A stretch of 44,317 bases of DNA from Gaiellales bacterium (GCA_040878265.1 JBBDMP010000004.1:1-44317), one strand, 5' to 3'. Shown: positions 16,629-38,042, counted from the first letter of the stretch. The notes: generated by a model not told the origin, from the sequence alone. Made by a program: numbers and translations.

Positions 16629-16686
16629 GATCACCTCCCTGGCTGAGCCGGTGGCCGAAAGTGTAGTGCGAAACCGCTACTACTAG

Positions 16687-17724: not shown

Positions 17725-17847
17725 GAGCCCGGCACCCTAGCAGGGTGCTGAGAAGGTGCGTTTGCGCGCCGTCGAGAAGCCCTGTTAGCATCGCCGCTTC
17801 GTGTTGGCGCCGGGCCCAGCCGTAGCGCCCCAGCGGCACCCTAGGTC

Positions 17848-18945: not shown

Positions 18946-19051
18946 CGCCCGAGCACCCTTCCGCATGCGGACAATCCGTTGAAACTCGGAAAGGGTTGTG
19001 CTCCCGAACGCAGAATTCATGCACCCCTCCGCTACGCTACGAAGGCGGCTC

Positions 19052-19888: not shown

Positions 19889-19891
19889 CGG

Positions 19892-20074
19892 CTAAGCCGC
19901 GGCACTTCCGGCCGCGCCCGTGGCCGCAGACGCCTTCAGGTGAGCCTCGAACAGGCTCCTGTCGATCTTCCCCTGGTAGATCGGGATGGCTTCCGCGAGG
20001 CAGAGGCGAATGACCTCCTCGCGCTCGATCCCGAGCTCCTTCGACAGCTCTTCAGGCGTCAGGTGATTCGGCAC
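19892..20074 (-). CDS. Small hypothetical protein (60 aa), possibly helix-turn-helix
   Basis: GTG start with GGAAAGGA 7 nt upstream and high GC3. LTPEELSKELGIEREEVIRLCL resembles an HTH. Its 3' end lies 3 nt from the ku stop (convergent). Confidence 0.55.
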   Translation of the reverse strand: MPNHLTPEELSKELGIEREEVIRLCLAEAIPIYQGKIDRSLFEAHLKASAATGAAGSAAA

Positions 20075-21063: not shown

Positions 21064-21079
21064 GCTACCCTATGGCCTT

Positions 21080-21153
21080 CGGGGTGTAGCGCAGCCTGGT
21101 AGCGCGCGCCGTTCGGGTCGGCGAGGTCCCCGGTTCGAATCCGGGCACCCCGA
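21080..21153 (+). tRNA. tRNA-Pro (anticodon CGG)
   Basis: 74-nt cloverleaf folded by hand. Acceptor CGGGGTG/CACCCCG, D-arm GCGC/GCGC, anticodon arm CGCCG-TTCGGGT-CGGCG, T-arm CCCGG-TTCGAAT-CCGGG, discriminator A. CCA is not encoded. Confidence 0.92.
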
Positions 21154-21158
21154 TTTGT

Positions 21159-22847: not shown

Positions 22848-23063
22848 GTGGACGCGATCTTGCCCAGTCTCCTGAAAACCCCTTACGAGGAGCCGGAGAT
22901 CCTCGACTTCGGCTCGATTGCGGACCATACGTTCCTGCGCTGCGGGGGGACCGGCGTGAACGGCGGGGGACATACGCCTCCAAAGGACTTCCCGTATCCG
23001 CCCGCCTACCACCTCGACAAGTTCGGGGAGTGCTCAGCTCTAGCGCTGGCCGTCTCGCCCTGA
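22848..23063 (+). CDS. Putative RiPP precursor with a lasso-type leader and an atypical 42-aa core (module 1)
   Basis: GTG start; the in-frame stop TAA at 22839-22841 prevents any longer N-terminus. Residues 13-29, YEEPEILDFGSIADHTF, match the Y-x2-P-x-L-x3-G-x5-T-x lasso leader motif. They also align with the module-2 precursor leader YEKPEVKDYGDLRELTA. First gene of the exporter/B1/C/K/B2 operon. No obvious Shine-Dalgarno sequence. Confidence 0.6.
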   Translation: MDAILPSLLKTPYEEPEILDFGSIADHTFLRCGGTGVNGGGHTPPKDFPYPPAYHLDKFGECSALALAVSP

Positions 23064-24082
23064 GCGGGAGCGCTGCGCCAGGGCCGGGGGTCGACCAGCG
23101 AGAAGCTCTCGCCGAGCGCGCGGACTCCCGGGCGCCGGTCGTCGAGGTTCGTTCCGTCTTGCGGCGCTTCGGTCGTACGATCGCGCTGAACGATGTCTCC
23201 CTCGACCTCGCGGCGGGGGAGATCCATGCGCTGCTCGGTCCGAACGGGGCGGGGAAGACGACCCTACTTCGCATCCTGACGGGACTCGTGCACCCCAACG
23301 CGGGCACTGCGCGCGTCATGGGCTTCGACGCCGTCGCGAGTCCCCGAGCCCTGCGCCAGCGACTCGGGCTCGTCCCTTCGGGCGACCGTTCCTTCTACCT
23401 GCGCATCTCCGGACTCGAGAACCTGGTGTTCTTCGCGCGCCTCTACGGCATGAGGCGACGAGCAGCGGTCGCCCGCTCGAACGAGGTGCTCGAGGAGGTG
23501 GGCCTGCTCGAGGCTGCCCGCACCCGCGTCGGGCTCTACTCCCACGGAATGCAGAAGCGCCTTGCCGTCGCGCGCGCACTCTTGCCGCATCCGGCAGTGC
23601 TGGTGCTCGACGAGCCGACGCACGACCTTGATCCCCGCGCGGCGCGCGCGATCAGAGAGCTCGTCCGGGAGCTTGCCTCCTGCGGAGCCGCCGCCATCTG
23701 GGCGACGCAGCGGATCGAGGAGATCCGCGGCTTCGCGGACACCGTAACCCTTCTGCACCGCGGTGAGGTGCGCTTCAACGGCGGCGTCCCGGATCTGCTT
23801 GCCCACTCGATCCCGCGGCGCTACCTCCTCCGCGTCCGGAACGGTTCCTTCTCGGGCCGCCCGGCGGAGGCCGCCCTCAATACGGCTCTCGCCGGAGTAG
23901 GCACGATCGCCGACGCCGGCGAGAGCTCCGAGCACTATCTGCTTCAGCTCCAGCACGGTGTCATTCTCGGCGACGCGCTCAAACGCCTGACTGAGGCTAC
24001 TTTCCAGATCCTCACCTGTAGCGAGGAACGGTCGGAGCTCGAGGAGGCATTTCTTGCGCTCACGCCGGAGGGCTCCCAGTGA
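23030..24082 (+). CDS. ABC transporter ATP-binding protein
   Basis: Walker A GPNGAGKTT, signature-like SHGMQKRLAVA, Walker B VLVLDEPT. The start is uncertain. GTG 23030 is the nearest upstream canonical start before the conserved VEVRSVLRRFG strand. The track start at 22835 overlaps the precursor ORF and is unlikely. Confidence 0.85.
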   Translation: MLSSSAGRLALSGSAAPGPGVDQREALAERADSRAPVVEVRSVLRRFGRTIALNDVSLDLAAGEIHALLGPNGAGKTTLLRILTGLVHPNAGTARVMGFDAVASPRALRQRLGLVPSGDRSFYLRISGLENLVFFARLYGMRRRAAVARSNEVLEEVGLLEAARTRVGLYSHGMQKRLAVARALLPHPAVLVLDEPTHDLDPRAARAIRELVRELASCGAAAIWATQRIEEIRGFADTVTLLHRGEVRFNGGVPDLLAHSIPRRYLLRVRNGSFSGRPAEAALNTALAGVGTIADAGESSEHYLLQLQHGVILGDALKRLTEATFQILTCSEERSELEEAFLALTPEGSQ

Positions 24083-24936
24083 GCACTTTCGTCGAGCCGC
24101 TGCCCAGCCGTCTTGCGGTCCTCGTCGAGGACCTACGCAAGCTCCCGGCTTTTCTCCGCCGGGACTTCCTCGTCGCCTTGAGCTATCGGACGGCGTTCAT
24201 CTCCGACGCACTCGGTCTGTTCTTCGGCGCCTTCATCTTCTACTTCGTCGGCCTCATGGTCGATCCGACCAAGATCCCGACCTACGGAGACACCCGCGCG
24301 ACGTACATGGAGTTCGTTGCCATCGGTCTCGCGCTCGGTGTTTTCCTCCAGATCGGGCTCGGCCGGGTGGCGGCGGTCATGAACCGCGAGCAGCTCATGG
24401 GGACGCTCGAATCGCTGGTGGTCACGCCGACAGCCACCGCCACGATCCAGATCGGGTCGGTGGTCTACGACCTCATCTACATCCCGATACGGACGGCACT
24501 CTTCCTCCTCGCCATCGACGTCGGCTTCGGTCTCCACTTCCAGGCGGACGGCATTCTGCCGGCCGCCGTCATGCTTCTCTTCTTCATCCCCTTCGTGTGG
24601 GGGTTGGGCCTTGCTGCCGCGGGTGCCATGCTCACCTTCCGCCGCGGGGCGGGCGCGTTCGGACTAGGGATCGGTTTCCTGACGCTCGGATCGGGCGCAT
24701 ACTTCCCGCTCGAGCTCCTGCCCGGCTGGGTCCAGGACGTCTCCGTCGTCAACCCGATCACAGTCGCGATCGAGGGAATGCGTGAGACGCTGATCGGCGG
24801 CGTCGGCTGGTCCGGCGTCGCTACCGACCTGCTCGTGCTCGCGCCACTCTCGCTCTTCTCGCTCGTCGCCGGGGTCTTCATATTCCGGCTCGCTCAGTGG
24901 CGAGAGCGCCGTCAGGGGACCCTAGGGCTCTACTAG
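24079..24936 (+). CDS. ABC-2 type transporter permease
   Basis: 285 aa with about 6 hydrophobic segments. GTGA overlap with the ATPase stop. Confidence 0.85.
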   Translation: MSTFVEPLPSRLAVLVEDLRKLPAFLRRDFLVALSYRTAFISDALGLFFGAFIFYFVGLMVDPTKIPTYGDTRATYMEFVAIGLALGVFLQIGLGRVAAVMNREQLMGTLESLVVTPTATATIQIGSVVYDLIYIPIRTALFLLAIDVGFGLHFQADGILPAAVMLLFFIPFVWGLGLAAAGAMLTFRRGAGAFGLGIGFLTLGSGAYFPLELLPGWVQDVSVVNPITVAIEGMRETLIGGVGWSGVATDLLVLAPLSLFSLVAGVFIFRLAQWRERRQGTLGLY

Positions 24937-24940
24937 AGCG

Positions 24941-25210
24941 ATGGAGGTCACGGGCATCCAGAGGAACGGGGACGTCGCCTACCGCGAGCTCGCGTCTGGA
25001 GAGGGTGGCGTGCTGCTTCACCTCGGGACCGGCCAGTACTACGGCGTCAACCGCCTCGGCGCGGTCATCTGGAGCCTGCTCGACGGGGAGCGCACGGGGG
25101 ACGGAGTGGTCGCTGAGCTGCGGGCGCGTGTGGAAGACCCTCCACCGACGTTCATGGCGGACGTCGAGCGCTTTTTGGACGGGATGCGCCAACGTGCCCT
25201 CATCCGTTAG
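24941..25210 (+). CDS. PqqD-family protein (lasso B1 / leader-recognition element), module 1
   Basis: 89 aa. GGVLLHLGTGQYYGVNRLGAVIWSLLDGERT...VVAELRARV...FMADVERFLDGMRQRALI is a typical PqqD/RRE pattern. Confidence 0.85.
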   Translation: MEVTGIQRNGDVAYRELASGEGGVLLHLGTGQYYGVNRLGAVIWSLLDGERTGDGVVAELRARVEDPPPTFMADVERFLDGMRQRALIR

Positions 25211-25224
25211 GCAGCGGCGCCGCC

Positions 25225-27018
25225 GTGGGAGCCTTCGCCGCCGTCGCCTTCCGCTCGCGGCCTCCTGATTCAGAGGTCGTCACGCGGATGCTGGCTGCGG
25301 CCCCGCATCGGGGCGCCAGTGCGGAGGTCGTGTCGTGCGGCGACGCCGTCCTCGGCGTGAGCGGGAGTGTCGAGCTCGAGAATGCCTGGCTCGGACGGGA
25401 CAACGGCGTCGCAGCGGCGTTCGTGGGGAATCTCGACAACCGCGCCGAGCTCGCTGCTGAACTCGGCGCACCTCGGGATCACGGCCACGACGACCCTGCG
25501 AAGCTCGTGATCGCCGCGTACCGGCGGTGGGGAGAAGGCTTCCCCGCCCGGCTGCGCGGGAGCTTCAGTGGGGCCGTCGTCGACGAAAATGAGCTCGTCG
25601 CCTTCCGCGACCAGCTCGGCTTCGAGACGCTCTTCTACCGGGACGAGGAAACCGCGTTCCTCGCCGCGACGGAAGCGAAGCAGGTCGTCGCCGGAGCCGG
25701 CATTCCCCGTCGCCCCGAACTCGACGCGCTCCCGGGCATCTTCTATGGGCGTCTGCAGCCCGACCAGACGGCCCTCGAGGGCGTATACCGCTTTCCGATG
25801 GCATCGACCGCGCGAGTTGGCGCGGGGCGGCGGGCGTCCTTCCACCGTTACTGGGATCCGAGGGCGCTACTCGAGACAGCCCGGGTCTCGGACGACGAGG
25901 CACGCGAGCGGCTCGTGAAGCTGCTCGAGCGGGCGGTCGCCCGGACCGTGACGGGGAACGATGGCATCTCCCTAAGCGGCGGCGTTGATTCGCCAGCGGT
26001 GGCGGCGTTCGCCGTTTCGCCGCACATGCGGCTGGCGGGCCGGCCCCCGCTTGCCGTTTCGGCCGTCTACCCCGATCTACCGAACGTGAACGAGCTCTCG
26101 CACATCGAGGCGGTCGCGGACCTGCTCGGCCTCCCACTCCACACATACGTTCCTCATGCGAGACCGCTCGACGACGTCGCCTACTGGGTTGACGTTCTCG
26201 ACGGACCGGTCGACGTCCTCTCCGTCCCTGAGGTCGCGGAGAGCTACCGGGTGGCGCGCGCGGCGGGTGTCAGCACGGTCCTCACCGGCGAGCTCGCCGA
26301 GTACGTCTACGCGATCCGCCAGCACCTTCCCGGCCACCTGCTTCTGCACGGTCGCTGGCGGGCCTTTGCCCGCTGGGTCGACCAGGAGCGCAGCCGGGGC
26401 AGCTCTTGGCGCCGCATCGCCCGAACGCTCGCCCCCTCCGTCACCCCGTCCTTGCTCGCGACGGCGTACGTCCGCCTGCTCAAGCGCGACAACAGGCCCC
26501 TTCCCGTCTGGGTCGACCCCGCCCAAGTCGGGGGTCTCGGAAACCGGCTCGACCTGCGACGCCCGGCGCGTCGCCGGTGGAGCGAGTCGCAGCTCGACTC
26601 ATTCGGCGGCGGCGCCTCGATCAGCGTCGAGGCAGATGCGCTCTGTGCGGCGCTCTGCGGCGTGCGGGTGCGCCGGCCCCTGGCCGACATCGATCTCTGG
26701 GAGTTCTTCCTCAGCCTTCCGGCCGAGCGGAAGTTTCCCGACTCGGCGCCGAAGAGCCTCGTCCGCCAGGTCCTGCGTGGGCGGATCCCGGACACTGTGC
26801 TCGACCGGCGCGACCAGACCGTCTTCGACGACCACTACCTCGCCGCCGCCGACTATCCGGCCCTACGGCGGTGGATCCTCGACTCCGAGTACCGGCTCGA
26901 GGGAGTGGACTACAAGGTCCTCGCCGAGCGCCTGAACCGCGAGGAGATGGACGTGCACGAGCTTTCGTGGGCAAACGACCTCGCGCGGATCCACGCGTTC
27001 GTGAGCCTATGGGCGTAG
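25225..27018 (+). CDS. Asparagine-synthetase-like lasso cyclase (C), module 1
   Basis: PP-loop ISLSGGVDSPAVAAF. The N-terminus MGAFAAV lacks the glutaminase Cys2, as in lasso cyclases. 597 aa. Confidence 0.88.
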   Translation: MGAFAAVAFRSRPPDSEVVTRMLAAAPHRGASAEVVSCGDAVLGVSGSVELENAWLGRDNGVAAAFVGNLDNRAELAAELGAPRDHGHDDPAKLVIAAYRRWGEGFPARLRGSFSGAVVDENELVAFRDQLGFETLFYRDEETAFLAATEAKQVVAGAGIPRRPELDALPGIFYGRLQPDQTALEGVYRFPMASTARVGAGRRASFHRYWDPRALLETARVSDDEARERLVKLLERAVARTVTGNDGISLSGGVDSPAVAAFAVSPHMRLAGRPPLAVSAVYPDLPNVNELSHIEAVADLLGLPLHTYVPHARPLDDVAYWVDVLDGPVDVLSVPEVAESYRVARAAGVSTVLTGELAEYVYAIRQHLPGHLLLHGRWRAFARWVDQERSRGSSWRRIARTLAPSVTPSLLATAYVRLLKRDNRPLPVWVDPAQVGGLGNRLDLRRPARRRWSESQLDSFGGGASISVEADALCAALCGVRVRRPLADIDLWEFFLSLPAERKFPDSAPKSLVRQVLRGRIPDTVLDRRDQTVFDDHYLAAADYPALRRWILDSEYRLEGVDYKVLAERLNREEMDVHELSWANDLARIHAFVSLWA

Positions 27019-27923
27019 GCGGAGCGGTCAGCGGCGGAACGTGCTTCGGCTTCGAGGTCCGCTCTCCGCTTCCATTCAATTACCTTCGCGGCGGTGCCGG
27101 CGAGCCGCTCGCGATCCGGGAGCCCTCCAACGTGGCGGAGGTCACAAGGGATGACCTCGTCATCGAGTGGACGCCTACCCCGGAGCTCCCCTTCCACGCC
27201 CGGCTCTACTCGCATGAGGCCCTCTTCCGTCTCTGGATCGACGGTGCCGGGTGGTTCGAGGTCGATCCCGAGGCACGGGCGATCTCGCTGCCCGAGACGG
27301 ACAACCCGGTGCGGCGTGAGGAGCGCCTCTGGGGGATTCCGGCGATCCTCTGCTTCCTGTGGCGAGGCGACCTACCCCTCCACGCCGCCTCGGTGGAGGT
27401 CGATGGCGGCGCAATCCTCCTCTGCGCGCCGCGAACTTTCGGGAAGACCACCTTGGCCGCCGCATTCGTCCATCAGGGCTTTCGACTCCTCAGCGAGGAC
27501 GTGAGCTGTGTGCGCCTGAACGCCACGCCGAGCGTAATCCCAGGTCCTGCCATGCTGCGCCTCCGCCGGGACATAGCGGAGCGGCTGGACATTCCTCGTG
27601 CGCATCGCGTGGGAGAGCCAGACGACCGCATGCACCTCGCGCTCGACCCGGCGCAGCGGGGGAACTGCGATCCCATCCCGATCCGCGCTGTCGTCTTCCT
27701 CCGGGACGGAGACGACGAGGTCGCTCTGGAAGGTGCGCGGGCGTCTGACGCGATCCGCGATCTGTGGTCGCTCAGCTTCCGGCTCCCTTCTGACGCCGAC
27801 CGCGCTCGCTGCTTCGCCGGTGTGACAGACCTGGTAAATGCCGCGCCCGTGTGGAACCTTTCGTATCCGCGCCGCATCCACGCGTTGCGTGCCGCCGTAG
27901 AGAGAATTATCACCGATGCCTAA
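27009..27923 (+). CDS. HPr-kinase-like P-loop protein (putative precursor Ser kinase), module 1
   Basis: ATG 27009, in frame with the tail of track ORF 26406..27923. LHAASVEVDGGAILLCAPRTFGKTTLAAAFVHQGFRLLSEDVSCV mirrors the HPrK/P core H-G-x-L-V...G-x-S-G-x-G-K-S...L-x-x-D-D. Overlaps the C stop by 10 nt. Confidence 0.75.
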   Translation: MGVGGAVSGGTCFGFEVRSPLPFNYLRGGAGEPLAIREPSNVAEVTRDDLVIEWTPTPELPFHARLYSHEALFRLWIDGAGWFEVDPEARAISLPETDNPVRREERLWGIPAILCFLWRGDLPLHAASVEVDGGAILLCAPRTFGKTTLAAAFVHQGFRLLSEDVSCVRLNATPSVIPGPAMLRLRRDIAERLDIPRAHRVGEPDDRMHLALDPAQRGNCDPIPIRAVVFLRDGDDEVALEGARASDAIRDLWSLSFRLPSDADRARCFAGVTDLVNAAPVWNLSYPRRIHALRAAVERIITDA

Positions 27924-28329
27924 CGCCGCCACCCGTCCGCTTAGCCTTCCGGCGAAGGTCGAGCTCGCCCTGCGCATCTGGACGACCTTCCTCGTTGTCC
28001 AGGGCGGCATCCGCCGCCAGCCCTTGCCTGACTTCGTCGCGCAGCTGGGCGGCTCAGGACGCCAGCTGCGCGAGAGTCACTCGCCCGCGCAGCTGAGCCG
28101 GGCTGTCTACAAGAGCCTTCGGATCGGGAGTCGGCGACCGAAGTGTCTCGTCAATTCGCTTGTCCTCTTCCACTTGCTGCGGACCCAGGGCGATCCCGCC
28201 GAGCTCGTCATCGGCCTGCCCGAGGAGCCTGCCGACCACTTCGCGCATGCCTGGGTCGAAGTCGAGGGCGTCGACGTCGGTCCGCCACCGGGCCGAAACG
28301 GCCACCGCGAGCTCGCCCGCTTCCGCTGA
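27916..28329 (+). CDS. Transglutaminase-like Cys protease (lasso B2 leader peptidase), module 1
   Basis: 137 aa. PKCLVNSLVLFHLL (catalytic Cys) ... DHFAHAWVEVEGVDV (His) is a typical lasso B2 core. Confidence 0.88.
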   Translation: MPNAATRPLSLPAKVELALRIWTTFLVVQGGIRRQPLPDFVAQLGGSGRQLRESHSPAQLSRAVYKSLRIGSRRPKCLVNSLVLFHLLRTQGDPAELVIGLPEEPADHFAHAWVEVEGVDVGPPPGRNGHRELARFR

Positions 28330-29411
28330 TGACGAGCGCGAGCTACGCGGCCGAGGAGGTGTTGGGAAGCGACGACATCTGGACGGGCGTCGGGCGGGTG
28401 ATCGACCGGGCTCCCAGCCTGGCGCACCTGCGCAGGCACCGGCTTCACCTTCTCGCCGCCCACAGATGGCGCTCGCTCGGGCGGCCGCTCCCGCCCGAGC
28501 TCGCGGACGACGAGCGGCGTGCCGCCATGGCGGCACTTGCTGTGCCCATCCTGCTCGAGCGGGTGCGAGCGGGCTGCGACGATCCCGTCATCGTCTTCAA
28601 GGGCCCTGAGGTCGCGGCGCGCTATCCAAACCCCGCACTGCGCGATTTCGTCGATCTCGACATCCTCGTCCCCGATGCCGCTCAGGCGCAACGGTCTCTC
28701 ATCGAAGCCGGCTTCCGTGAGTTCGGCGATCCGGAGCTGTACGTCGACATCCATCATCTGCGCCCGCTCTTCTCGGCCCCCCTGCAGCTGCGGGTCGAGG
28801 TGCACAGCGCGCCCAAGTGGCTCGACGAGCTCGAGCCGCCGCCGGCCAGCGAGCTCTTCTCCGGGGCTGTTCCGAGCGCGACCGGCGTTGAAGGGATCCT
28901 GGCGCTCCCGCCGGCTCAGCACGCGGTCGTCCTGGCCGTGCACTCCTGGGCCCACGAGCCGCTTGCGCGCCTCGGCCACCTGGTCGACATCGCGGCGATT
29001 TTGGACGGCACCGATCGCAACGCGGCGGCCGAGATCGCAGGCGCCTGGGGCGTGCGCAGTCTCTGGGACACGACGCTCGACGTCGCCGACGCGGTCTTCC
29101 TGGGCAGGCGCGGGCGAGCGGGCGTCCTCAACGTCTGGGCGCGCCATCTCCGCGCGGCGCGCGAGCGGACGGTGTTCGAGCATCACGTCGAGCGCTGGAT
29201 GTCGGGGTTCTGGGCCCTCCCGGCGGGCAAGGCGGCCCGGCAGACGGCAGAGGAACTCTGGTGGGATATCAGGCCCACCCCGGGAGAGTCGTGGCGGCGA
29301 AAGCTCTCCCGCACGGGACGGGCCTTCCGCGACGCGTTCGTCCCGCGCTCGGAACACGACCGGGCGCTCGGCCCCGAAGCGTCCCGCCGTCGCGACCGCC
29401 CGTCCGTCTGA
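28329..29411 (+). CDS. Uncharacterised nucleotidyltransferase-family protein (type found in kinase-containing lasso clusters)
   Basis: ATG 28329 with a TGATG overlap. VIVFKGPEVAARYPNPALRDFVDLDILVPDAAQAQ carries the h-K-G...R-x-x-x-D-h-D-h-L-V polymerase-beta-like NTase motif. Confidence 0.75.
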   Translation: MTSASYAAEEVLGSDDIWTGVGRVIDRAPSLAHLRRHRLHLLAAHRWRSLGRPLPPELADDERRAAMAALAVPILLERVRAGCDDPVIVFKGPEVAARYPNPALRDFVDLDILVPDAAQAQRSLIEAGFREFGDPELYVDIHHLRPLFSAPLQLRVEVHSAPKWLDELEPPPASELFSGAVPSATGVEGILALPPAQHAVVLAVHSWAHEPLARLGHLVDIAAILDGTDRNAAAEIAGAWGVRSLWDTTLDVADAVFLGRRGRAGVLNVWARHLRAARERTVFEHHVERWMSGFWALPAGKAARQTAEELWWDIRPTPGESWRRKLSRTGRAFRDAFVPRSEHDRALGPEASRRRDRPSV

Positions 29412-29519
29412 GCCGACCGGGCGCGCGCCCGAGAATCGACCTAGCCGTTCGGACAGGACGGGTTCAGAATCGCAGGCCCGCCCTCGTCCTCGCACGGCGA
29501 CGGCGATAAGGTTGCCTGA

Positions 29520-30236
29520 GTGCAGCGGAAGCGTGAACTGATGCGATCCAAGGACCCGGGACGGGCAAGCGGCGTGGAGCCCCAGGAGCTTTCCGTTACG
29601 GTTCTCGCGGCCGACGACATCCGCGGCCGTCGCGCGGAGTCGATCCTCGCGGCGGGCGGTCTCCGCTCCAGGGGGCGGGCGGCGCGTCCGGAGGGTCTTC
29701 TCGACGACGAGCGCAGCTTGGAGATCCGGGCGATCGTCGTCGTCGCCGAGGAGTTCGATGCCGAAGTCGGGGGCTGGTTTCGCGCGCTGCGCCAAAGGCT
29801 TCCGGCCGCCGCGCTCGTCTGCGTCATTGGATCGCTCACGCCGCGCGTCGTCCGCGACGCGCTCGCGAGCGGGGCCGATGGCCTCCTCCTCGAGCAAGAC
29901 GCCGAGGCGGGTCTCGGCCCTGCCGTACGAGCGGCTTGCGCAGGCCAGATCACCCTTCCCCGCGAGCTCGGCCGGGATCTGGCCGCACCGAGGCTCTCCT
30001 CGCGCGAGAAGCAGGTCCTCGGCATGGTCGTCATGGGCTTTACGAACGGCGAGATCGCGCGAAAGCTGTACCTGGCGGAGAGTACCGTCAAGAGCCACCT
30101 CTCCTCCTCGTTCGCCAAGCTCGGCGTGCGTTCTCGCAACGAGGCGACCGCCCTCATCCTCGACCCAGAGCGTGGCCTCGGGACGGGTATCCTGGCCATC
30201 TCCGAAGGTGGGGAGCGCCTTGGGCCGGGCAGCTGA
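29520..30236 (+). CDS. LuxR-family transcriptional regulator with a degenerate receiver-like N-terminal domain
   Basis: The C-terminal part LSSREKQVLGMVVMGFTNGEIARKLYLAESTVKSHLSSSFAKLGV is a LuxR HTH. The N-terminal domain keeps LAADD. It lacks the h-h-M-D-L acceptor Asp (IVVVAEEFD) and has Glu where the conserved Lys sits (GLLLE). GTG 29520 or ATG 29541 may be the start. Confidence 0.8.
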   Translation: MQRKRELMRSKDPGRASGVEPQELSVTVLAADDIRGRRAESILAAGGLRSRGRAARPEGLLDDERSLEIRAIVVVAEEFDAEVGGWFRALRQRLPAAALVCVIGSLTPRVVRDALASGADGLLLEQDAEAGLGPAVRAACAGQITLPRELGRDLAAPRLSSREKQVLGMVVMGFTNGEIARKLYLAESTVKSHLSSSFAKLGVRSRNEATALILDPERGLGTGILAISEGGERLGPGS

Positions 30237-30276
30237 GCCGGCGTCGGCGATAATTCCAGGGGAGGTTTTCGTACGG

Positions 30277-30600
30277 ATGGAGGAAGCGACCGTGCCCGGA
30301 ACCGGCGACGAATCCCTTCTTGCCGCCACCGTGCGGGTGCCCGAGCACGTCGTTTACCGCGCGTTCGTCAAGGAGACTGTCGTTCTGAACCTGCAGACCG
30401 GCAAGTATCACGGCCTCAACCCGACCGGCGGCCGGATGCTCGAGGTTCTGACCAAGGCCGAGAACATCGGCGAGGCAACGGCCAAGCTCGCCTCGGAGTA
30501 CGGTCAGCGCCAGGGCGAGATCGAGCGTGATGTGTTGGCCTTGTGCAAGGACCTGATCGAGCGCGGGCTCATCGAGCTCCATTCCGGTGCCGACCGGTAG
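30277..30600 (+). CDS. PqqD-family protein (lasso B1 / RRE), module 2
   Basis: ATG 30277 (Met174 of track ORF 29758..30600) with GGGGAGG 10 nt upstream. VVLNLQTGKYHGLNPTGGRMLEVLTKAENIGEATAKLASEY...DVLALCKDLIERGLIE is a PqqD pattern. Confidence 0.85.
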   Translation: MEEATVPGTGDESLLAATVRVPEHVVYRAFVKETVVLNLQTGKYHGLNPTGGRMLEVLTKAENIGEATAKLASEYGQRQGEIERDVLALCKDLIERGLIELHSGADR

Positions 30601-31564
30601 GCAGGCCCGGCGCACGGGGCTCAAACGCGGCTACGCGTTCGGACTCGAGCTATCGGCCCGCGTGCCCATCCCAGTCGCAGCGGCGAACGGCCGCGGCAGC
30701 GGCAGGGCGACCACGTGGGAGCTCGTCACCGACGTCGAATTGGCGTCGACGTGGAACGCGAAGGAAGCCGTCTCGCTGCTCGACCGCAGGCACCTGAGCG
30801 GCCGCCCCATGCTCGCGATCGACCACCACGAGGCGCTCGGGTACCGCCTCGCGGCTCCCGGCTTCGGGCGCCACATCGTGTCCGGCGACGGCCAGACGGT
30901 CCGGTCTGTCCTCCCGAACGTGGCGCCGTGGCGCTGGCAGCGGCTGCTCTTCGCCCAGGTCCTTCCGCTGGCTGCGAATCTCCAAGGCCTGGAAGTGCTC
31001 CACGCTAGCGCGGTGGAACTGGACGGCCACGCGCACGCTTTCGTAGCACCGGCGGGCACGGGCAAGACGTCCGTCGCCGCCCACCTCATCGCGAGCGGCG
31101 CGTCTTTCGTCACCGACGACGCCCTCGCCGTCGAGACGACCGATGCCGCAGCGCTGGTGCATTCCGGCGCGGGCGTCACGAGCATCGATCGCAGCGAGCT
31201 TCGTGCGATGACCCGGGAAGGCCGCGAGCGGTTAGGTGAGATTCTCGGGCGGAGCGACTTCAAGGTCCAGGTCGCCGTCGAGCCGGTGCCGCAGGCGCTT
31301 CCGCTCGAGCGCGTCTTCTTCCTCGAGCGCGATGCATCGGCCGAACGGGTGGAGATCGAGGAACACCGGTCGCCCGATCCCGCCCTGCTGCTCTCCAGCA
31401 CGTTCATCTGGTATCTCCGCAGTCCGCAGCGCCTGCTTCGGCACCTCGACGCCTGCGCGCGACTCGCACGCACGGCCCGCGTCTTCCACGTTCGGATCCC
31501 GGCTTCCAGCCCGGCCCGCGCGGTCGCCTCCGAGATCGAGCACCACATTCGAGGGGATCGATGA
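30587..31564 (+). CDS. HPr-kinase-like P-loop protein (putative precursor Ser kinase), module 2
   Basis: LHASAVELDGHAHAFVAPAGTGKTSVAAHLIASGASFVTDDALAV matches the HPrK/P core and the module-1 paralogue. Overlaps the B1 stop by 14 nt. Confidence 0.75.
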   Translation: MPTGRQARRTGLKRGYAFGLELSARVPIPVAAANGRGSGRATTWELVTDVELASTWNAKEAVSLLDRRHLSGRPMLAIDHHEALGYRLAAPGFGRHIVSGDGQTVRSVLPNVAPWRWQRLLFAQVLPLAANLQGLEVLHASAVELDGHAHAFVAPAGTGKTSVAAHLIASGASFVTDDALAVETTDAAALVHSGAGVTSIDRSELRAMTREGRERLGEILGRSDFKVQVAVEPVPQALPLERVFFLERDASAERVEIEEHRSPDPALLLSSTFIWYLRSPQRLLRHLDACARLARTARVFHVRIPASSPARAVASEIEHHIRGDR

Positions 31565-32019
31565 ACCGTCCCACGGCGATCAGTCCCCCGTCGGCCGCCG
31601 CACGGGAGGCGTGGAGGCGACGCTTGCCCGCGTCGCGCAAGCTCGCCCTGGCGAGGGAGATCCTGGTGACGTACCCGCGTGTGCGGTGGTGGCTCCGGCA
31701 CAAGGAGCTCCCCGCGGTGATCGCGGCACTCCGCGCGGGTGATCGTCCGGCGGAACAGCCGAACGGCGACCAGATTCTGATGGGCATCCGGCTCGGCCGT
31801 GTCGTCCGGCGGACGCTCGGTGTGCTGCCCGCCGACTCGCGCTGCCTCGTGCGCTCGCTCGTCCTGACGTCGCTGCTCGCGCAGCGCGGCATCGACTCGA
31901 AGCTCGTGATCGGTGTGAAGGCGGAGCACAGCTTCGAGGCGCACGCTTGGGTCGAGTGCGCCGGAGTCCCCCTGTTGCCCCCCGGCGAGGAGGACTACGG
32001 GCGGCTCGTGGAGTTGTGA
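31561..32019 (+). CDS. Transglutaminase-like Cys protease (lasso B2), module 2
   Basis: ATGA overlap with the kinase gene. SRCLVRSLVLTSLL ... FEAHAWVECAGVPL provides the Cys/His core. Confidence 0.88.
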   Translation: MNRPTAISPPSAAAREAWRRRLPASRKLALAREILVTYPRVRWWLRHKELPAVIAALRAGDRPAEQPNGDQILMGIRLGRVVRRTLGVLPADSRCLVRSLVLTSLLAQRGIDSKLVIGVKAEHSFEAHAWVECAGVPLLPPGEEDYGRLVEL

Positions 32020-33947
32020 TGGCCGTCGGAACCGCCGTCTATCCCGTACTTGCAGGCGTCTTCGACCCGACGGCGACCTTCGACTTCGACGGGTCGCGCG
32101 CCGTGCTGGGCGGCGTTCTCGAGCGCGAAGGAGACGGCGACGCCGTCGCGGCGGGGCAACTCGCCGCCGTCCGTACGCCTGCACGGGGCCGCCGTACCTC
32201 GGACGAGCGGTTCCTTTGCCTGCTCGCCGGCCGCATCTACAACCTGGGCGAGCTCGCCGGGTCGAGTCGAGCCGAAGACCCCGAGGTGGTCCTGGCGAGA
32301 CTCTGGGGGGAGCGCGGAGACGCTTTCCTCGGACAGCTTTCGGGTTCGTTCGCGTTCGCGCTGTGGGACCGGGAGGAGCGGCGCGGCGTGATCGTGCAGG
32401 ATCAGGTCGCCGCCAGGTCGGTCTATTACTGCACGTCTGGATCTCGCCTCTTCTTCGCCTCCGACATCCGTCCGCTGCTCGCGGTGCTGCCGACACGCCC
32501 GGCCCCGGATACCGTCTCGGTCGTCCACTGGCTCGCCAACAGCCCGCCCCCGGGGCAGCGGACGATGTACGAGGGCATCGAGCGTCTCGGACCGGGCTAC
32601 ATGCTCGAGTTGCGCGACGGACGATGGGCACGACGTCGCTACTGGGAGCCGCGGTACCGGACGCCTGTCCGCCGTTCGCATGGCGAAGTGAGCGAGGAGC
32701 TCTGGACGGTCGTGTCCAAGGCGGTAGGTGCGCGGCTGGCCGCCGGCGGCTCGATCGGCATCGTCATGAGCGGCGGTGTCGACTCTTCGACCGTTGCGAC
32801 CGCGGCGATGGAGGCGCGCAACGGGCTTCCGGCGCCGCGCGGCTACTCGGCGGTCTTCCCGGACGAGCCGAAGATGGACGAGTCCCTCCGGATCCAGGCG
32901 CTCGCCGAGGGGATCGGCCTGCCGAGCACTCAGATGGAGGTCGAGCCCGGCGGCCTCGTGGCGCTCCTGCTCGAGTACGTCGCCCGCTGGGACCTTCCGC
33001 TGTCCGGGCCCGGCTATCTGCTCGAGCAACCGTTGCTCGCGCGCGCGGCTGCAGACGGGGTCGACGCTCTTCTCGACGGGCAGGGCGGCGACGAGGCGTT
33101 CGGCCACGCGCCCTACCTCCTGGCGGACCGGATCCGCCACGGCAGGCTGATCTCGAGCATCCGGCTGGCGCGCCGCTTCCCGCTCGTCTTCGAACGAACG
33201 CCGTGGAAGGTCTCGCTGCAGATCTGGAAGCTGTTCGGCCTGAAGGGAGCGGTCCCGTACGGGATCCACAACGCGGTTCGCGCGCGCCGCGGCGCGGAGC
33301 ACCACGCGCCGAAGCTGCTTACGGGGGAGAGCGGACGCCTCTATTTCGAGTCGGACGACCCCTGGGCCTGGAAGGCCGTGGAGAGCGGTCCGTTGTGGTG
33401 GCGCTACAAGCTGAGCACGCTGACGAAGATTCGCGAAGACGTGGGGCTCGGCGAGTACCTCCGGCACCGGGCGGCGATGGCCGGGCTGGAGGCGCGGCCG
33501 CCGCTGCTCGATCTCGACCTGGTGGAGTTCGCGCTCGGCGTCCCTCCCGCCCTCGAGTTCGATCAAGCCGCCGACCGGCCCCTGATCCGTGAGGGCATGC
33601 GCGGGCGCGCTCCCGACTATGTGAGGCTCTGGCGGGAGAAGAGCAACCTCGGGCCGTTCTACCACGAGACGCTCTCGGGCCATGATCTCGAAGTCATTCG
33701 CGACGTGCTCGGAGCGGAGGACGCCGAGATTCGCGCCTTCGTCCGTCCCGAGATCATTCGTGACCTCGTCGAGCAGGTCCCGCGGGTCGGAGAGCCCGGC
33801 TGGCTGAAGTGGGGGACGACGCTGTTCTGCCTATTCAGCGGCGAGTGCTGGCTTCGCCAGCAATCCGATCCCTCGTTCGCGCAGCGCCTGCGCGAGACGG
33901 CCGACCTCACGAGGCCTCGAGCTCGCGTGCACCACGCTCCGGTATGA
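32019..33947 (+). CDS. Asparagine-synthetase-like lasso cyclase (C), module 2
   Basis: ATG 32019 overlaps the B2 TGA (GTGATGG). PP-loop IVMSGGVDSSTVATAA is present, with no N-terminal Cys2. 642 aa. Confidence 0.88.
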   Translation: MAVGTAVYPVLAGVFDPTATFDFDGSRAVLGGVLEREGDGDAVAAGQLAAVRTPARGRRTSDERFLCLLAGRIYNLGELAGSSRAEDPEVVLARLWGERGDAFLGQLSGSFAFALWDREERRGVIVQDQVAARSVYYCTSGSRLFFASDIRPLLAVLPTRPAPDTVSVVHWLANSPPPGQRTMYEGIERLGPGYMLELRDGRWARRRYWEPRYRTPVRRSHGEVSEELWTVVSKAVGARLAAGGSIGIVMSGGVDSSTVATAAMEARNGLPAPRGYSAVFPDEPKMDESLRIQALAEGIGLPSTQMEVEPGGLVALLLEYVARWDLPLSGPGYLLEQPLLARAAADGVDALLDGQGGDEAFGHAPYLLADRIRHGRLISSIRLARRFPLVFERTPWKVSLQIWKLFGLKGAVPYGIHNAVRARRGAEHHAPKLLTGESGRLYFESDDPWAWKAVESGPLWWRYKLSTLTKIREDVGLGEYLRHRAAMAGLEARPPLLDLDLVEFALGVPPALEFDQAADRPLIREGMRGRAPDYVRLWREKSNLGPFYHETLSGHDLEVIRDVLGAEDAEIRAFVRPEIIRDLVEQVPRVGEPGWLKWGTTLFCLFSGECWLRQQSDPSFAQRLRETADLTRPRARVHHAPV

Positions 33948-33991
33948 GCCCTGAGGACATCCGACCTTTCTCGTACCGACCTTTTTCCGCC

Positions 33992-34020
33992 TTGTCTTCG
34001 CGCTGCACCGCGAGTAGCCT
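33992..34020 (+). promoter_or_regulatory. Candidate sigma-70-type promoter for the module-2 precursor
   Basis: TTGTCT (33992-33997), a 17-nt spacer, then TAGCCT (34015-34020, TANNNT form). It lies in the relatively AT-richer 107-nt gap after the cyclase gene, about 35 nt upstream of the precursor ATG. Confidence 0.35.
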
Positions 34021-34055
34021 CGATCGGGAAGGAAACTGCGACCAAGGAGACTTCG

Positions 34056-34208
34056 ATGGAAGAGCGCAAGGACGTAGCGCCCGCGTACGAGAAGCCGGAG
34101 GTCAAGGACTATGGCGATCTGCGCGAGCTGACTGCGACTCAGGCGACGGGGACGCAGACGGACGTGCCGAAGGGAACCCCGGTTCCGCCGTTCACGATCT
34201 TCTCGTAG
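34056..34208 (+). CDS. Lasso peptide precursor (50 aa; below the ORF-track cutoff), module 2
   Basis: Translated by hand from ATG 34056, which has AAGGAG 6 nt upstream. Sequence: MEERKDVAPAYEKPEVKDYGDLRELTA-TQATGTQTDVPKGTPVPPFTIFS. The leader matches Y-x2-P-x-L-x3-G-x5-T-x. The core has Asp at position 9 and a C-terminal Ser. A strong terminator follows. Confidence 0.85.
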   Translation: MEERKDVAPAYEKPEVKDYGDLRELTATQATGTQTDVPKGTPVPPFTIFS

Positions 34209-34230
34209 CCGTCGGTCGCCAAGCGATTCT

Positions 34231-34264
34231 CGAGACCCGGCCTGCGAGCCGGGTCTCGCGTTTT
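34231..34264 (+). terminator. Rho-independent terminator after the module-2 precursor
   Basis: 11-bp perfect stem CGAGACCCGGC/GCCGGGTCTCG with loop CTGCGA, followed by GCGTTTT. Confidence 0.8.
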
Positions 34265-34331: not shown

Positions 34332-35132
34332 ATGGGCGGCGACGACCTCACGTTGAAAGTCTGGCGGCTCCACCCGAACGGGTGCCGCATCATCCCGGCC
34401 GAGAGGACGCTCCAGGGCACGGCGAATCGAGATGCCCTCCGCTGGTGCGGCCCCTTCACGCATGCGAATGCAGCAGGCTGGTGGCTGTACCCCCCGGTCG
34501 ACGTCGACATCGTCTGGCGGGGTGGCCGCGAGTTCGAGCACACGCAGCTGTCGCCGTACGATGACGCCGACAGTCACCTCATCCGCTTCCTCGCAGAGGG
34601 AATGGATGGTGTGACACCCGGAGAGTGGCTGCCGCCGGGAGGCCGGACGAAGTTCAGCTGGGGCCTGGTCGAGGAGGGGGTCGTCCAGATCTGGACCGGC
34701 TGCATCTTCCAGATGCCACCCGGATGGGGGCTGCATCTGCGGAGTCCGATCAACTTTCCGCCCGCAGCGTTCCACGTAATGGAGGCGATCATCGAGGCGG
34801 ACTGGCTGCAGTACGACATCTGGCTGAACCTCGCGTTCGACCGGCCGAACGAACCGGTACAGATCCGGAGGGACGGCCCGCACCCGATCGCCCAGCTCGT
34901 GCCCGTCACGCCCTCGAGCTACGACCGAGCCTGGCAGCTCGACAGCGAGCTCGTGAATCGCAACACTCCGGAGGCCAGCCGCGTCTTCGAATACTTCGTC
35001 GAGTACAACCAGAAGAAGTTTGCGAGCGGCGGGAAGCAGCTGCGGTCGCTCGAGGACCCCGCGCAGCGCAAGGACTCGGCGACCTACCACCGTGAGCGCA
35101 AGCGCCGTCGAGCCGAGGTCCGGGGCGAGTGA
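34332..35132 (+). CDS. Uncharacterised protein, paralogue A (no family assigned with confidence)
   Basis: 266 aa with high GC3. Shares the blocks C-x-P-x3-AN-x-AGW-x-L...W-x-GG, PPGW-x-L...P-x-N-x-P and E-x-DW with the ORF at 36158..36991. Translationally coupled (GTGA) to the GNAT gene. Confidence 0.7.
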   Translation: MGGDDLTLKVWRLHPNGCRIIPAERTLQGTANRDALRWCGPFTHANAAGWWLYPPVDVDIVWRGGREFEHTQLSPYDDADSHLIRFLAEGMDGVTPGEWLPPGGRTKFSWGLVEEGVVQIWTGCIFQMPPGWGLHLRSPINFPPAAFHVMEAIIEADWLQYDIWLNLAFDRPNEPVQIRRDGPHPIAQLVPVTPSSYDRAWQLDSELVNRNTPEASRVFEYFVEYNQKKFASGGKQLRSLEDPAQRKDSATYHRERKRRRAEVRGE

Positions 35133-36148
35133 CGCCGATCCGGCCGGCACGCGACGAGGACGCGGCGAGCGTCGCCGCCCTCGTGAACGAGATCACCGCC
35201 GACTGGTTCGCCTGGGCGCCGATCACCGCGGATGACCTGCTCGACCGGTGGCGCTCACCTCGAGTCGACCGGCAGGACTTCGTCGTCGCCGAAGGCTCGA
35301 TCCTCGGCTATGCCTCGGTGACCGCGGCGGACCCGGGACGGACGCGCCTCTGGGCCGAGCTCCGGGCCATTTCCGGCGAGGACGAGAGCCGCGTCTCCGC
35401 GAGCCTCCTCGCCGCGATCGAGGCTCGGGCACGAGAGCTGGCCGCTCGGGCTGATCCGGGGGCGCGCGTCGTGCTCCGCACGCAGGTTGCCGAGGTGCAG
35501 GCGCAGCTGGGGCGGCTGCTCGCCGAAGCCGGTTACGCGGTCGTGCGCCACGCCGAAAACGCCGTCCGGTCGCTCGAGCCGCCGCCGCCCCCGCCCTCGT
35601 GGCCGCCGGGGATAACTCCTCGCCGCTTCCGGACGGGCGAGGAGCGGACGATCTGGGAGCTGGCGATGGACGCGCTCGCGAGCAGCTGGGACTTCGTGCG
35701 CGAGCCCTTTCCCTCCTGGCTAGCGTCGCAAGTCGAGAGCCCCGCTTTCGACCCGGAGCTCTGGTTTGTCGCCGAGCGCGACGGCGACATCGCCGGCGTT
35801 CTCTACTGCCGCAACCATCCGTCCGATCCGGAGGTCGCCTGGCTCGACGTCCTCGCCGTCCGCCCTGAATGGCGGCGACGGCGGCTCGGCACCGCGCTCA
35901 CGCAGGAGGCGCTACGCGAGTTCCATCGGCGGGGCAAACGCCGGGCCGGGGTCGGTATCGATCCCGACAACCCCACCGGAGTTGCCCGGTTGCTGGCAAA
36001 GCTCGACTTCGAGATCGTTCAGCGCTTCTCGACCTTCGAGAAGGAGCTCCGGCCCGGGCGGCCCGCAGCCCGGCTGCTCGGACGTTCCGCCCGAAACGCC
36101 GGGCAGGCCTGGCGGCGCCTCGTTTCGGGAGCGACCCGAGCGCACTAG
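35129..36148 (+). CDS. Tandem-GNAT N-acetyltransferase (MshD-like two-domain architecture)
   Basis: The C-terminal GNAT has acetyl-CoA motif A, LDVLAVRPEWRRRRLGTALTQEAL. The N-terminal half (IRPARDEDAASVAALVNEI...) is a second, more degenerate GNAT fold. 339 aa. Confidence 0.8.
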   Translation: MTPIRPARDEDAASVAALVNEITADWFAWAPITADDLLDRWRSPRVDRQDFVVAEGSILGYASVTAADPGRTRLWAELRAISGEDESRVSASLLAAIEARARELAARADPGARVVLRTQVAEVQAQLGRLLAEAGYAVVRHAENAVRSLEPPPPPPSWPPGITPRRFRTGEERTIWELAMDALASSWDFVREPFPSWLASQVESPAFDPELWFVAERDGDIAGVLYCRNHPSDPEVAWLDVLAVRPEWRRRRLGTALTQEALREFHRRGKRRAGVGIDPDNPTGVARLLAKLDFEIVQRFSTFEKELRPGRPAARLLGRSARNAGQAWRRLVSGATRAH

Positions 36149-36157
36149 ACTCGGACA

Positions 36158-36991
36158 ATGGCGCCGAACCGGAAGAAAAAGAGCCCCTCCCAGCCCGTTG
36201 CAGCGCCGCAGGAGGCCGAAACGCTCCAGCTCGTGGCCCTGCACGTCTCGCCTCCGCCCGAGGCGATCGTCGAGCCTGCTCCACGGTGGCGGGACTGGAT
36301 CAACGAGATGGACGAGCGCTGGGCGAACCGCTGCCTGCCCCTGCTCGTTGCGAACGAGGCCGGCTGGGTCCTGCGCACCCCGTACGCCTTCGAGGCGATC
36401 TGGGACGGCGGGGCGGCTGCGGAGGCCGTCGACGTCGTCTTCGACGACGCGTCCGTTCCGACCCCCAAGCCTGTCGAGAGCCATTTCGGCTACGGGATCC
36501 TCACCTGGGTCGTCCCCTACCTCTTCCGGACCCCGCCCGGCTGGAATCTGCTCGCCCGTGGCCCTGCCAACTGGCCCAAGGACGGCATCTGCGCGCTCGA
36601 GGGCCTCGTGGAGACCGACTGGTCGGTCGCGACGTTCACGATGAACTGGAAGCTGACGAGGCCGGGACACCCCGTTCGCTTCGAGGCGGGCGAGCCGTAC
36701 TGCATGATCGTCCCGCAGCGCCGCGGCAACCTCGAGCTCTTCCGCCCCGTCTACCGCGACTTCGAGCGAGAACCCGAGATGCGTAAGGGGACGAAGGCCT
36801 GGTCGGAAAGTCGCCACGATGCGCAGGTGCGGAAGTTCTTGGCCGCGTATTCGCGCGAGTACGAGGGCGAGCGGAGCTCGTGGGAGAGCCATTACTTCCG
36901 GGGTACGGCTCCCGACGGAACCGCCGCGCCCGCTCATCAGACGCACATCCGTCTCGCTCCCTTCGAGCGCGAGACGGAGGCGACCAGCTAG
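36158..36991 (+). CDS. Uncharacterised protein, paralogue B
   Basis: 277 aa, with the same conserved blocks as 34332..35132 (NRCLPLLVANEAGWVL...IWDGG; RTPPGWNLLARGPANWP; LVETDW). The stop overlaps the stop of the convergent methyltransferase gene by 4 nt (CTAG). Confidence 0.7.
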   Translation: MAPNRKKKSPSQPVAAPQEAETLQLVALHVSPPPEAIVEPAPRWRDWINEMDERWANRCLPLLVANEAGWVLRTPYAFEAIWDGGAAAEAVDVVFDDASVPTPKPVESHFGYGILTWVVPYLFRTPPGWNLLARGPANWPKDGICALEGLVETDWSVATFTMNWKLTRPGHPVRFEAGEPYCMIVPQRRGNLELFRPVYRDFEREPEMRKGTKAWSESRHDAQVRKFLAAYSREYEGERSSWESHYFRGTAPDGTAAPAHQTHIRLAPFERETEATS

Positions 36992-37975: not shown

Positions 37976-38042
37976 CGGTCTCTTGAGTGAACCGGCCGAG
38001 GAGCGCTCCGTCAAGAACGATCCAAGGGCCGGGACGTGAACG

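Follow-up and report, generated by a model that had tools for sequence, protein, structure and literature searches.

Phosphorylated lasso peptides are known from paeninodin-type clusters (PadeK, ThcoK, SyanK), the kinases of which require a C-terminal Ser in the precursor (PMC8498205). The pseudomycoidin cluster of Bacillus pseudomycoides encodes the kinase PsmK together with the nucleotidyltransferase PsmN (PMC8498205), and the bsf cluster of Bradymonas sediminis encodes BsfK and BsfN, of which BsfK phosphorylates Ser3 of the ring (PMC10368454). Albusnodin-type clusters combine lasso genes with a GNAT acetyltransferase (PMC8498205). In Bacilli, capsular polysaccharide loci contain paeninodin-like lasso clusters next to clusters for linear polyphosphorylated peptides (LPPs) (Popov et al. 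2026, PMC13381572), and this pair raised the question of how two pathways that depend on a RiPP (ribosomally made peptide with post-translational modifications) recognition element (RRE) and have similar leaders avoid interference (PMC13381572). Here we describe two adjacent modules of such genes, at positions 22848-34264 of a DNA stretch of 44,317 nt from a Gaiellales bacterium (GCA_040878265.1 JBBDMP010000004.1:1-44317), the whole of which is called the window. We consider it likely that the locus is a composite of two anciently diverged, kinase-tailored, lasso-type RiPP clusters which elsewhere occur separately, and that module 2 most likely uses the exporter of module 1 and the single nucleotidyltransferase (NTase).

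Profile searches with Pfam and NCBIfam models placed 14 intact genes in two adjacent split-B modules, each with its own HPrK-like gene, as the initial annotation had described, and an integrity check of the open reading frames (ORFs) left its gene coordinates and its chained overlaps and gaps essentially unchanged (Table 1). Two proteins matched the PqqD family (61 and 55 bits; cutoff of PF05402, 23.4 bits), two others, both with SGGVDS and both without Cys2, matched Asn_synthase as well as GATase_7, and the two B2 proteins scored 53.7 and 70.8 bits with the lasso_biosyn_B2 model NF033537, above its cutoff of 33. The lasso-specific B1 model NF033530 (cutoff 70) gave 40.6 bits for B1a and 43.8 bits for B1b, both below. 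With B1, B2 and an Asn-synthetase-like C detected in each module, the complete lasso machinery proposed earlier was found twice; both modules carry a full predicted set of split-B lasso enzymes plus an HPrK-like kinase. The different gene orders (B1-C-K-B2 in module 1 and B1-K-B2-C in module 2) were likewise borne out, as was the presence of exporter, NTase (PF14907; cutoff 31.2 bits) and LuxR regulator once only. We refer to the relatives of module 1 as type a and to those of module 2 as type b, and to the two precursors as A1 and A2.

Clusters of the paeninodin type combine a split B1/B2, an Asn-synthetase-like cyclase, an HPrK-homologous kinase, an ABC exporter and a precursor ending in Ser, and module 2 agrees with this type throughout at the sequence level. 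Unlike the characterised hosts, which are Bacillota and Proteobacteria, the host here is an uncultured Gaiellaceae actinobacterium; the gene order is also different, LuxR and DUF6065/GNAT genes are attached, and the exporter is a two-gene ABC-2 exporter encoded in the neighbouring cluster. A kinase and an NTase beside lasso core genes, as in the pseudomycoidin and bsf clusters, are a feature of module 1 and of most loci of either type; the NTP_transf_5 protein is likened to PsmN by gene type only, and, unlike in bsf, there is no conserved Ser3 in the precursors. As in the albusnodin type, a GNAT gene adjoins the lasso genes and the A2 core has one Lys, whereas the GNAT protein here is a two-domain, MshD-like one encoded between DUF6065 genes, and some A2 relatives are free of Lys, although L129 also lacks GNAT. 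A parallel in arrangement, the lasso/LPP pair of Bacilli, also has two adjacent RRE-dependent RiPP clusters with kinase and NTase in a polysaccharide-locus setting, and a leader motif [Y/W]xxPx[L/V/I]. Unlike that pair, both modules here have B2 and C, there is a single exporter and a single NTase, and the signal-peptidase family (SpI-like, SipW-type) by which LPP clusters are recognised had no match in a scan of 27 ORFs from 14.3 to 42.8 kb. Literature searches on lasso peptides of Gaiellaceae/Thermoleophilia or on DUF6065 found nothing. Kinase- and NTase-tailored lasso clusters are known already; what is new is the single-exporter fusion and, even more, a type-a precursor family that is not canonical.

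Between the enzymes of the two modules, identity is only 26% for B1, 28% for C, 29% for K and 36% for B2, against 40-81% identity of each module with its orthologues in stand-alone clusters of other uncultured genomes. Compared with the single-module loci L002 and L004, module 2 showed 57-59% identity for B1, 41-48% for K, 45-54% for B2, 37-39% for C and 54-63% for LuxR, while proteins of the L002/L004 type showed only 27-35% identity with module 1. B1b was 57-64% identical to B1 of type-b loci, and module 2 was orthologous to L125, L129 and L089 as well. Single-set relatives on contigs with NTase homologues had the order LuxR-B1-K-B2-A-C, convergent with abc-perm-NTase. The low identity of the paralogues, together with far closer stand-alone orthologues, argues for juxtaposition of separate families and not for duplication.

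How often either type occurs alone was read from 80 type-a loci (one genome per species scanned with an alignment of the Ka family) and 73 type-b loci (metagenome scan with a Kb-family alignment). Type-a loci were hosted by Gaiellaceae, other Actinomycetota, Gemmatimonadota and Chloroflexota. Annotation with the window proteins gave (A)-abc-perm-B1-C-K-B2, with or without NTase, as the recurrent stand-alone arrangement; L048 has a gene order identical to that of module 1, the order A-abc-perm-B1-C-K-B2-NT was also credited to L006, and most type-a loci have no adjoining LuxR gene. The nearest homologues of the window proteins all come from metagenome-assembled genomes (MAGs) of uncultured Gaiellaceae and other Thermoleophilia, and identical proteins were found on one other contig only, a 14-kb Logan assembly (run SRR27977662). 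Both types lay side by side in none of the 80 type-a and 73 type-b loci, barring the partial case of L008/L011, in which an additional B2, an NTase and a Kb-like gene come after a type-a set; the two-module synteny for which the initial annotation had suggested looking in related genomes is thus absent from these 153 loci. The window arrangement appears to be a rare fusion of two cluster families, each common alone. L008/L011 (Gaiellaceae MAG, JBOHAD010000001.1) is itself a multi-module locus: at ~13.2-17.7 kb, its type-a set, second B2 and NTase are joined by a third kind of precursor, ..YESPTLMVLGSLYELTLGCDKTLGTSDGFTFQGQAIVCSSTT, which is followed by a short Asn-synthase (415 aa) and a PqqD gene.

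Module 2 has the more familiar precursor. By the lasso rule, the ring acceptor is an Asp or Glu at position 7, 8 or 9 of the core (PMC12480086). In 30 distinct type-b precursors, we found a common leader, Y-E-x-P-x-V/I-x-D-Y/F-G-D-L-x-E/D-L-T-x, with Thr at +15 from Tyr in every one of them; the 9-residue segment after the leader closes with Asp in 28 of the 30, the core starts with Gly, Ala, Ser, Thr or Gln, and its C-terminal end reads ..FS or ..TFS(xx). By this family pattern, A2 of the window would consist of a 27-residue leader and a 23-residue core with a predicted Thr1-Asp9 ring. A2 also shows the hallmarks of a lasso precursor, with Thr at -2 and a Thr1...Asp9 core, and its end, ..TIFS, agrees with the C-terminal Ser that paeninodin-type kinases need (PMC8498205). 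Judged on its sequences, module 2 belongs with the canonical paeninodin-like lasso clusters, having a predicted Thr1-Asp9 ring, and would represent a DUF6065-associated subtype of type b under a LuxR-type regulator, LuxR being orthologous to the type-b regulators. From homology we infer that B1b would bind the YEKPEV leader motif of A2, Kb would phosphorylate the C-terminal Ser of the linear precursor, B2b would cleave after Thr-Ala and Cb would close the Thr1-Asp9 macrolactam around the tail, while the NTase, and possibly the DUF6065 and GNAT proteins, would decorate the product.

The type-a precursors follow another pattern. We compared 70 distinct cores from related loci (L006-L088), and a scan of 1.84 billion representative proteins added 25 small homologues (P0361-P0389). 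Their leader is Y/F-E-x-P-x-V/I-x-D-Y/F-G-S-I-x-x-H-T-F, in A1 YEEPEILDFGSIADHTF, with Thr at +15 and Phe at +16 from Tyr in all 69 type-a members (69/69); H-T-F is invariant in type a, and A1 had no match with the lasso leader model NF033521 at E<=0.01. The Tyr-to-Thr spacing is that of type b, which argues for normal B2 cleavage after Thr-Phe. The region after H-T-F is 16-47 residues long, with a variable residue 1 and an N-terminal segment of variable length. No Asp/Glu is present at core positions 7-9 in 53 of the 70 cores, that of the window included, and the same holds in the 25 further homologues; the window core begins LRCGGTGVN and its first acid is at position 18. Towards the C-terminus there is a block D-K-F-x-E-x-S-[H/C]-P, with E-x-S in 58 of 70 cores and a Lys 12-14 residues before the Glu of E-x-S in 55 of these 58 (15 residues in the window). 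In the subgroup of the window the motif is PPKD-x8-9-DKFGECS, after a spacer of variable length following x-R-C. More than 60 of the 70 end in Ser or Ser-Pro (commonest SP, 22; PS, 15; GS, 7; AS, 5; VS, 4), and A1 ends in ..AVSP with Ser penultimate. Since a ring acceptor is missing at 7-9, the structure of the module 1 product would lie beyond prediction by the lasso rule. The type-a enzymes appear to be maintained, as the B2a family has Cys...HxW in all 72 members and the Ca family has the PP-loop in 70 of 77 ORFs, the other 7 being fragments.

A few type-a loci depart from this pattern. L055 is canonical-looking (Gly1-Asp8): at 13440-13723 (-) it has two tandem short precursors with a type-a leader and the cores GKPGHRYD-HGVFPASVP and GQPGHRYD-HGIFPASA, from which the type-a enzyme family would also cover ordinary-looking lasso substrates. 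Another group, DNPGxGD, has Asp7. At the other extreme stands L052 (Gaiellaceae MAG SMAG_U187), where the precursor at 818-991 has a type-a core, TRAGGNCQSPNLGPIFNQYSCTSFSS, with zero Asp/Glu; its NQYSC stands in place of the QEYSC of its relative L064, and the adjoining B1-C-K-B2 set is apparently complete. We also looked for a hidden canonical ring in the type-a cores and do not count the outcome as evidence, as a Gly/Ala/Ser/Cys 7-9 residues before the conserved Asp/Glu can always be found and no conserved Thr-2-like cleavage motif goes with it.

It is possible, if rather improbable, that module 1 is a distinct, non-lasso RiPP class in which B1, B2, C and K are re-employed and the product is either cross-linked through the C-terminal K...D-K-F-x-E-x-S block or a linear phosphorylated peptide. 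HPrK-like kinases and RREs do serve a non-lasso class, the LPPs (PMC13381572). The cores themselves point the same way: most have no acid where a lasso ring needs it, that of L052 has none anywhere, the length after H-T-F varies, and the E-x-S motif with its upstream Lys recurs across the family. Family-wide B2a and Ca motifs fit as well, some cleavage and carboxylate activation being maintained. This reading is opposed by the leader geometry, which is as in type b (Tyr to Thr = 15), by the few canonical cores, and by a canonical ring that could come to light after a second cleavage, a Gly-x7-Asp pair always being available. An Asn-synthetase-like cyclase acting on a Lys amine, or closing very large rings, has no precedent known to us. 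An unconventional cross-link, a second processing event and a recognition block for kinase or NTase are three candidate explanations of the type-a pattern. A broader form of the idea, which we hold only tentatively and think unlikely, is that module 1 stands for an undescribed RiPP family of wide occurrence in which the full lasso machinery (B1, B2, C) plus a kinase acts on long Cys-containing cores, free of a ring acceptor at 7-9, to make a non-lasso cross-link, with the exporter shared with a coexisting canonical lasso pathway. Its determinant would be Lys-x(7-10)-Asp-Lys-Phe-x-Glu-x-Ser, and the linkage could be a macrolactam from the N-terminus to a distal Glu or an isopeptide between Lys and Asp/Glu; the type-a family is present in at least 80 species-level MAGs.

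In our preferred reading of two lasso-type clusters side by side, the question of how the pathways stay clear of each other arises here too. Type-a and type-b leaders have a common RRE-binding half, Y-E-x-P-x-V/I-x-D-Y/F-G, and protease-proximal halves which consistently differ, S-I-x-x-H-T-F in type a against D-L-x-E-L-T-x in type b. As both leaders are YxxP, any discrimination must sit in the protease-proximal half. These distinct, family-invariant halves argue for two products over one cross-processed product. Module 1 would process A1 by means of the B1, B2, C and K that it encodes itself, and two distinct products, one per precursor, would result. The initial annotation had left both outcomes open; two separate products are favoured, and a cross-processed product gains no support from leader halves that differ.

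The assignment of Ka and Kb as kinases comes mainly from family profiles and folds. Sequence-level evidence for HPrK is weak (Ka against TIGR04352, 1.4e-14; Kb against Hpr_kinase_C, 4e-4), and single-sequence searches of the PDB with Ka, the NTase and DUF6065 gave no match. A profile of the Ka family built from 32 homologues had HPrK/P structures as its sole matches in the PDB, and the Ka and Kb families aligned over 271 columns with an hhalign probability of 98.9%. The AlphaFold2 (AF2) model of Ka (predicted local distance difference test score, pLDDT, 93.6) had phosphoenolpyruvate (PEP) carboxykinase (PEPCK) and HPrK/P as fold matches; PEP carboxykinase and HPrK/P are of one common P-loop fold. 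Ka holds all the invariant columns of the 32-member alignment. Its motifs are His125, FGKTT and ED, and those of Kb are His, GTGKTS and DD; both thus keep the His, the GK[TS] and the acidic pair of the lasso-kinase motif list, which is His / GxxGxGK[ST] / DD (PMC10368454). Ka has at least 917 homologues (word-index search, 8000 candidates scored). On the contig of its second-closest full-length relative (75% identity; L162, JGI 3300051852), two Ka-like kinase genes flank an ABC pair, followed by an NTase (271-5699), a layout which is more evidence of frequent rearrangement among these parts. The junction of the window was not repeated in the closest Ka/NTase relatives, L162 and L163, which are arranged otherwise.

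Module 1 would be a stand-alone, translationally coupled operon of precursor, ABC exporter, B1, C, K, B2 and NTase, and the exporter is its own. In trees, the ABC ATPase and permease of the window group with type-a loci, as sister to L006 and L048, and paired hidden Markov model (HMM) scores favour type a for both ATPase (586 vs 479) and permease (485 vs 409). The subtype to which module 2 belongs has the precursor after C, a core ..TD-VP.GTP..F.IFS and DUF6065 genes attached, its closest loci being L125, L129, L119, L122, L093 and L089. In these loci an ABC pair of another kind, with only 33-38% and 26-30% identity to the window pair, is inserted after luxR and directly upstream of B1. No second ABC transporter is present in the 44-kb window, and module 2 appears to have lost its own exporter. 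With the ABC pair of its subtype missing, the module 2 product would likely be exported via the module-1 pump, and use of that exporter by module 2 is plausible; module 2 would most likely draw on the single NTase too. Any dependence is one-directional, of module 2 on module 1: module 1 is a complete stand-alone architecture and most type-a loci are without LuxR, so there is no sign that it needs module 2. Of the interdependence suggested in the initial annotation, the leaning of module 2 on the module-1 exporter is therefore plausible, and a need of module 1 for module 2 is unsupported.

Several points weigh against this composite, part-sharing reading. With the curated lasso-cyclase model NF033535 (cutoff 525), Ca and Cb scored 125 and 170 bits, far below. 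As the RRE-binding halves of the leaders are near identical, cross-binding at the level of B1 is possible. We infer the sharing of the exporter solely from there being no second one within 44 kb. The origin of the NTase, which has at least 736 homologues (word-index search, 8000 candidates scored), is ambiguous: by neighbour-joining it falls with type-b NTases, and its HMM scores are tied (465 vs 457). Module 2 may need no NTase, this gene being often missing in the DUF6065-associated subtype (L129, L119).

The same observation lends some weight to the view, to which we give a minority of our confidence, that the modules are mere neighbours in a variable region by the polysaccharide locus and share nothing, the module 2 product leaving through an unlinked transporter or staying intracellular and the NTase serving module 1 only. 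The NTase is dispensable in those subtype loci, the architecture of module 1 is self-sufficient, and the region by GFO_IDH_MocA/Bac_transf holds differing lasso sets across genomes. Two features speak against such independence: an adjacent ABC pair adjoins the lasso genes in all 19 of the type-b loci with enough flanking sequence to be informative, and the gap between the NTase and luxR is just 108 nt on the same strand.

That one module is a decaying remnant is very improbable. Module 2 is without the ABC pair of its relatives, and A1 is without a strong Shine-Dalgarno sequence and has an uncertain start. All the ORFs are, however, intact, the G+C content at third codon positions (GC3) is 0.80-0.89 in every gene save the long ORF of the ABC ATPase (0.76), the catalytic Cys/His, PP-loop and P-loop motifs are kept in both modules, the invariant columns of Ka are complete, and A2 has a good Shine-Dalgarno sequence (AAGGAG) and a terminator hairpin. 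A recent tandem duplication followed by rearrangement, which the same four enzyme families occurring twice within 11 kb might bring to mind, is refuted to near certainty, as the initial annotation had argued, by paralogues of 26-36% identity and far closer orthologues in genomes with one type.

GC3 frame analysis and the integrity check gave 17 intact genes on the + strand between 22848 and 36991, of which 14 are those named initially (Table 1). The G+C content is ~68% across the window, as of chromosomal DNA. The junctions within module 1 are -34, -4, +4, +14, -10, -8 and -1 nt, and those within module 2 are -14, -4 and -1 nt, with luxR and B1b 40 nt apart. Start codon analysis points to GTG 23030 as the most likely start of the ABC ATPase, and the 34-nt overlap is with the 3' end of A1. 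Of the promoter and terminator initially assigned to A2, only the latter was recovered, as a G+C-rich hairpin followed by GCGUUUUCC, which the consensus terminator scan had overlooked on account of its short T run. Upstream of A2 or A1 there was no sigma-70-like promoter beyond chance, in a scan that is uninformative for a high-G+C actinobacterium.

Table 1. Features of the two modules and of the genes following A2, with positions in the window
Feature	Position	Strand	Evidence or remarks
A1, type-a precursor, 71 aa from GTG (start uncertain)	22848..23063	+	GC3 0.81; family membership
A1 42-aa core LRCGGTGVNGGGHTPPKDFPYPPAYHLDKFGECSALALAVSP	22935-23060	+	leader ..YEEPEILDFGSIADHTF
ABC transporter ATPase, DrrA-like	23030..24082	+	PF00005 104 bits
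ABC-2 permease	24079..24936	+	PF01061 58 bits
B1a, PqqD-type RiPP recognition element	24941..25210	+	PF05402 61 bits
Ca, Asn-synthetase-like putative cyclase, SGGVDS PP-loop, no Cys2	25225..27018	+	PF00733 85 bits
Ka, HPrK/PEPCK-fold P-loop kinase	27009..27923	+	His125, GKT 145-147, E163-D164; profile and fold matches
B2a, transglutaminase-like Cys protease	27916..28329	+	NF033537 53.7 bits
NTP_transf_5 nucleotidyltransferase, sole copy in window	28329..29411	+	PF14907 80.6 bits
LuxR/GerE-type regulator	29520..30236	+	PF00196 62 bits
B1b, PqqD-type RiPP recognition element	30277..30600	+	PF05402 55.4 bits
Kb, HPrK-like kinase	30587..31564	+	His, GTGKTS, TDD motifs
B2b, transglutaminase-like Cys protease	31561..32019	+	NF033537 70.8 bits; SRCLVRS...AHAWVE
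Cb, Asn-synthetase-like lasso cyclase, SGGVDS, no Cys2, begins MAVGT	32019..33947	+	PF00733 134 bits
A2, type-b precursor, 50 aa	34056..34208	+	lasso_leader_L3 NF033521 22.7 bits, cutoff 19
A2 23-aa core TQATGTQTD-VPKGTPVPPFTIFS	34137-34205	+	27-aa leader, end ..LT-A
Terminator-like hairpin after A2	34231..34258	+	11-bp stem, z = -3.09
DUF6065, first copy	34332-35132	+	Pfam
Two-domain GNAT, MshD-like	35129-36148	+	Pfam
DUF6065, second copy	36158-36991	+	Pfam

A2 is followed by tightly packed DUF6065-GNAT-DUF6065 genes, which also stand beside the type-b sets of L125, L129 and L093. Module 2 probably does not end at 34264, as first annotated, but extends to 36991 with these as its accessory genes. 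DUF6065 has at least 3646 matches (word-index search, 7034 candidates scored); its AF2 model (pLDDT 78) gave a weak match with a dUTPase/dCTP-deaminase-like barrel (E ~1e-3), and no function was assigned. Between the DUF6065 genes and the sugar locus are two ORFs, 36988-37230 (-) of 80 aa and 37340-37990 (+) of 216 aa, which had no Pfam/NCBIfam match and have high GC3 or were called as genes; similar unannotated small genes are seen at the same position in relatives. The sugar/polysaccharide locus at 38043-42785 (-) encodes GFO_IDH_MocA, Bac_transf, formyltransferase and DegT aminotransferase proteins, and the same neighbours flank lasso sets in relatives (a JGI contig, L008). On the other side, 1-20000 is core chromosome: a ribosomal-protein operon that includes secY, map and rpoA is followed by truA and by genes for a HAD hydrolase and NAD-dependent DNA ligase (ligA), beyond which lie those for an S13 D-Ala-D-Ala carboxypeptidase, a response regulator, proteins with 3D and NlpC/P60 domains, and Ku. 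A tRNA-Pro(CGG) gene (21079-21154) is present 1.7 kb upstream of A1. A genomic island at this tRNA was considered and rejected, as no repeat of the tRNA of >=14 nt was found elsewhere in the window and the G+C content is flat.

The characterised examples of kinase/NTase-tailored lasso peptides all come from Bacillota and Proteobacteria, and the locus adds two families that are common in uncultured soil Thermoleophilia. With both families at one locus and a single exporter and NTase, it offers a natural test of non-interference, or of the sharing of parts, between pathways with near-identical leader motifs, a question only just opened experimentally (PMC13381572). Most type-a precursors would probably be rejected by lasso-mining tools, which look for an Asp/Glu acceptor at core positions 7-9. 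Should the type-a products be something other than classical lassos, the family would widen the range of chemistry known for lasso cyclase homologues.

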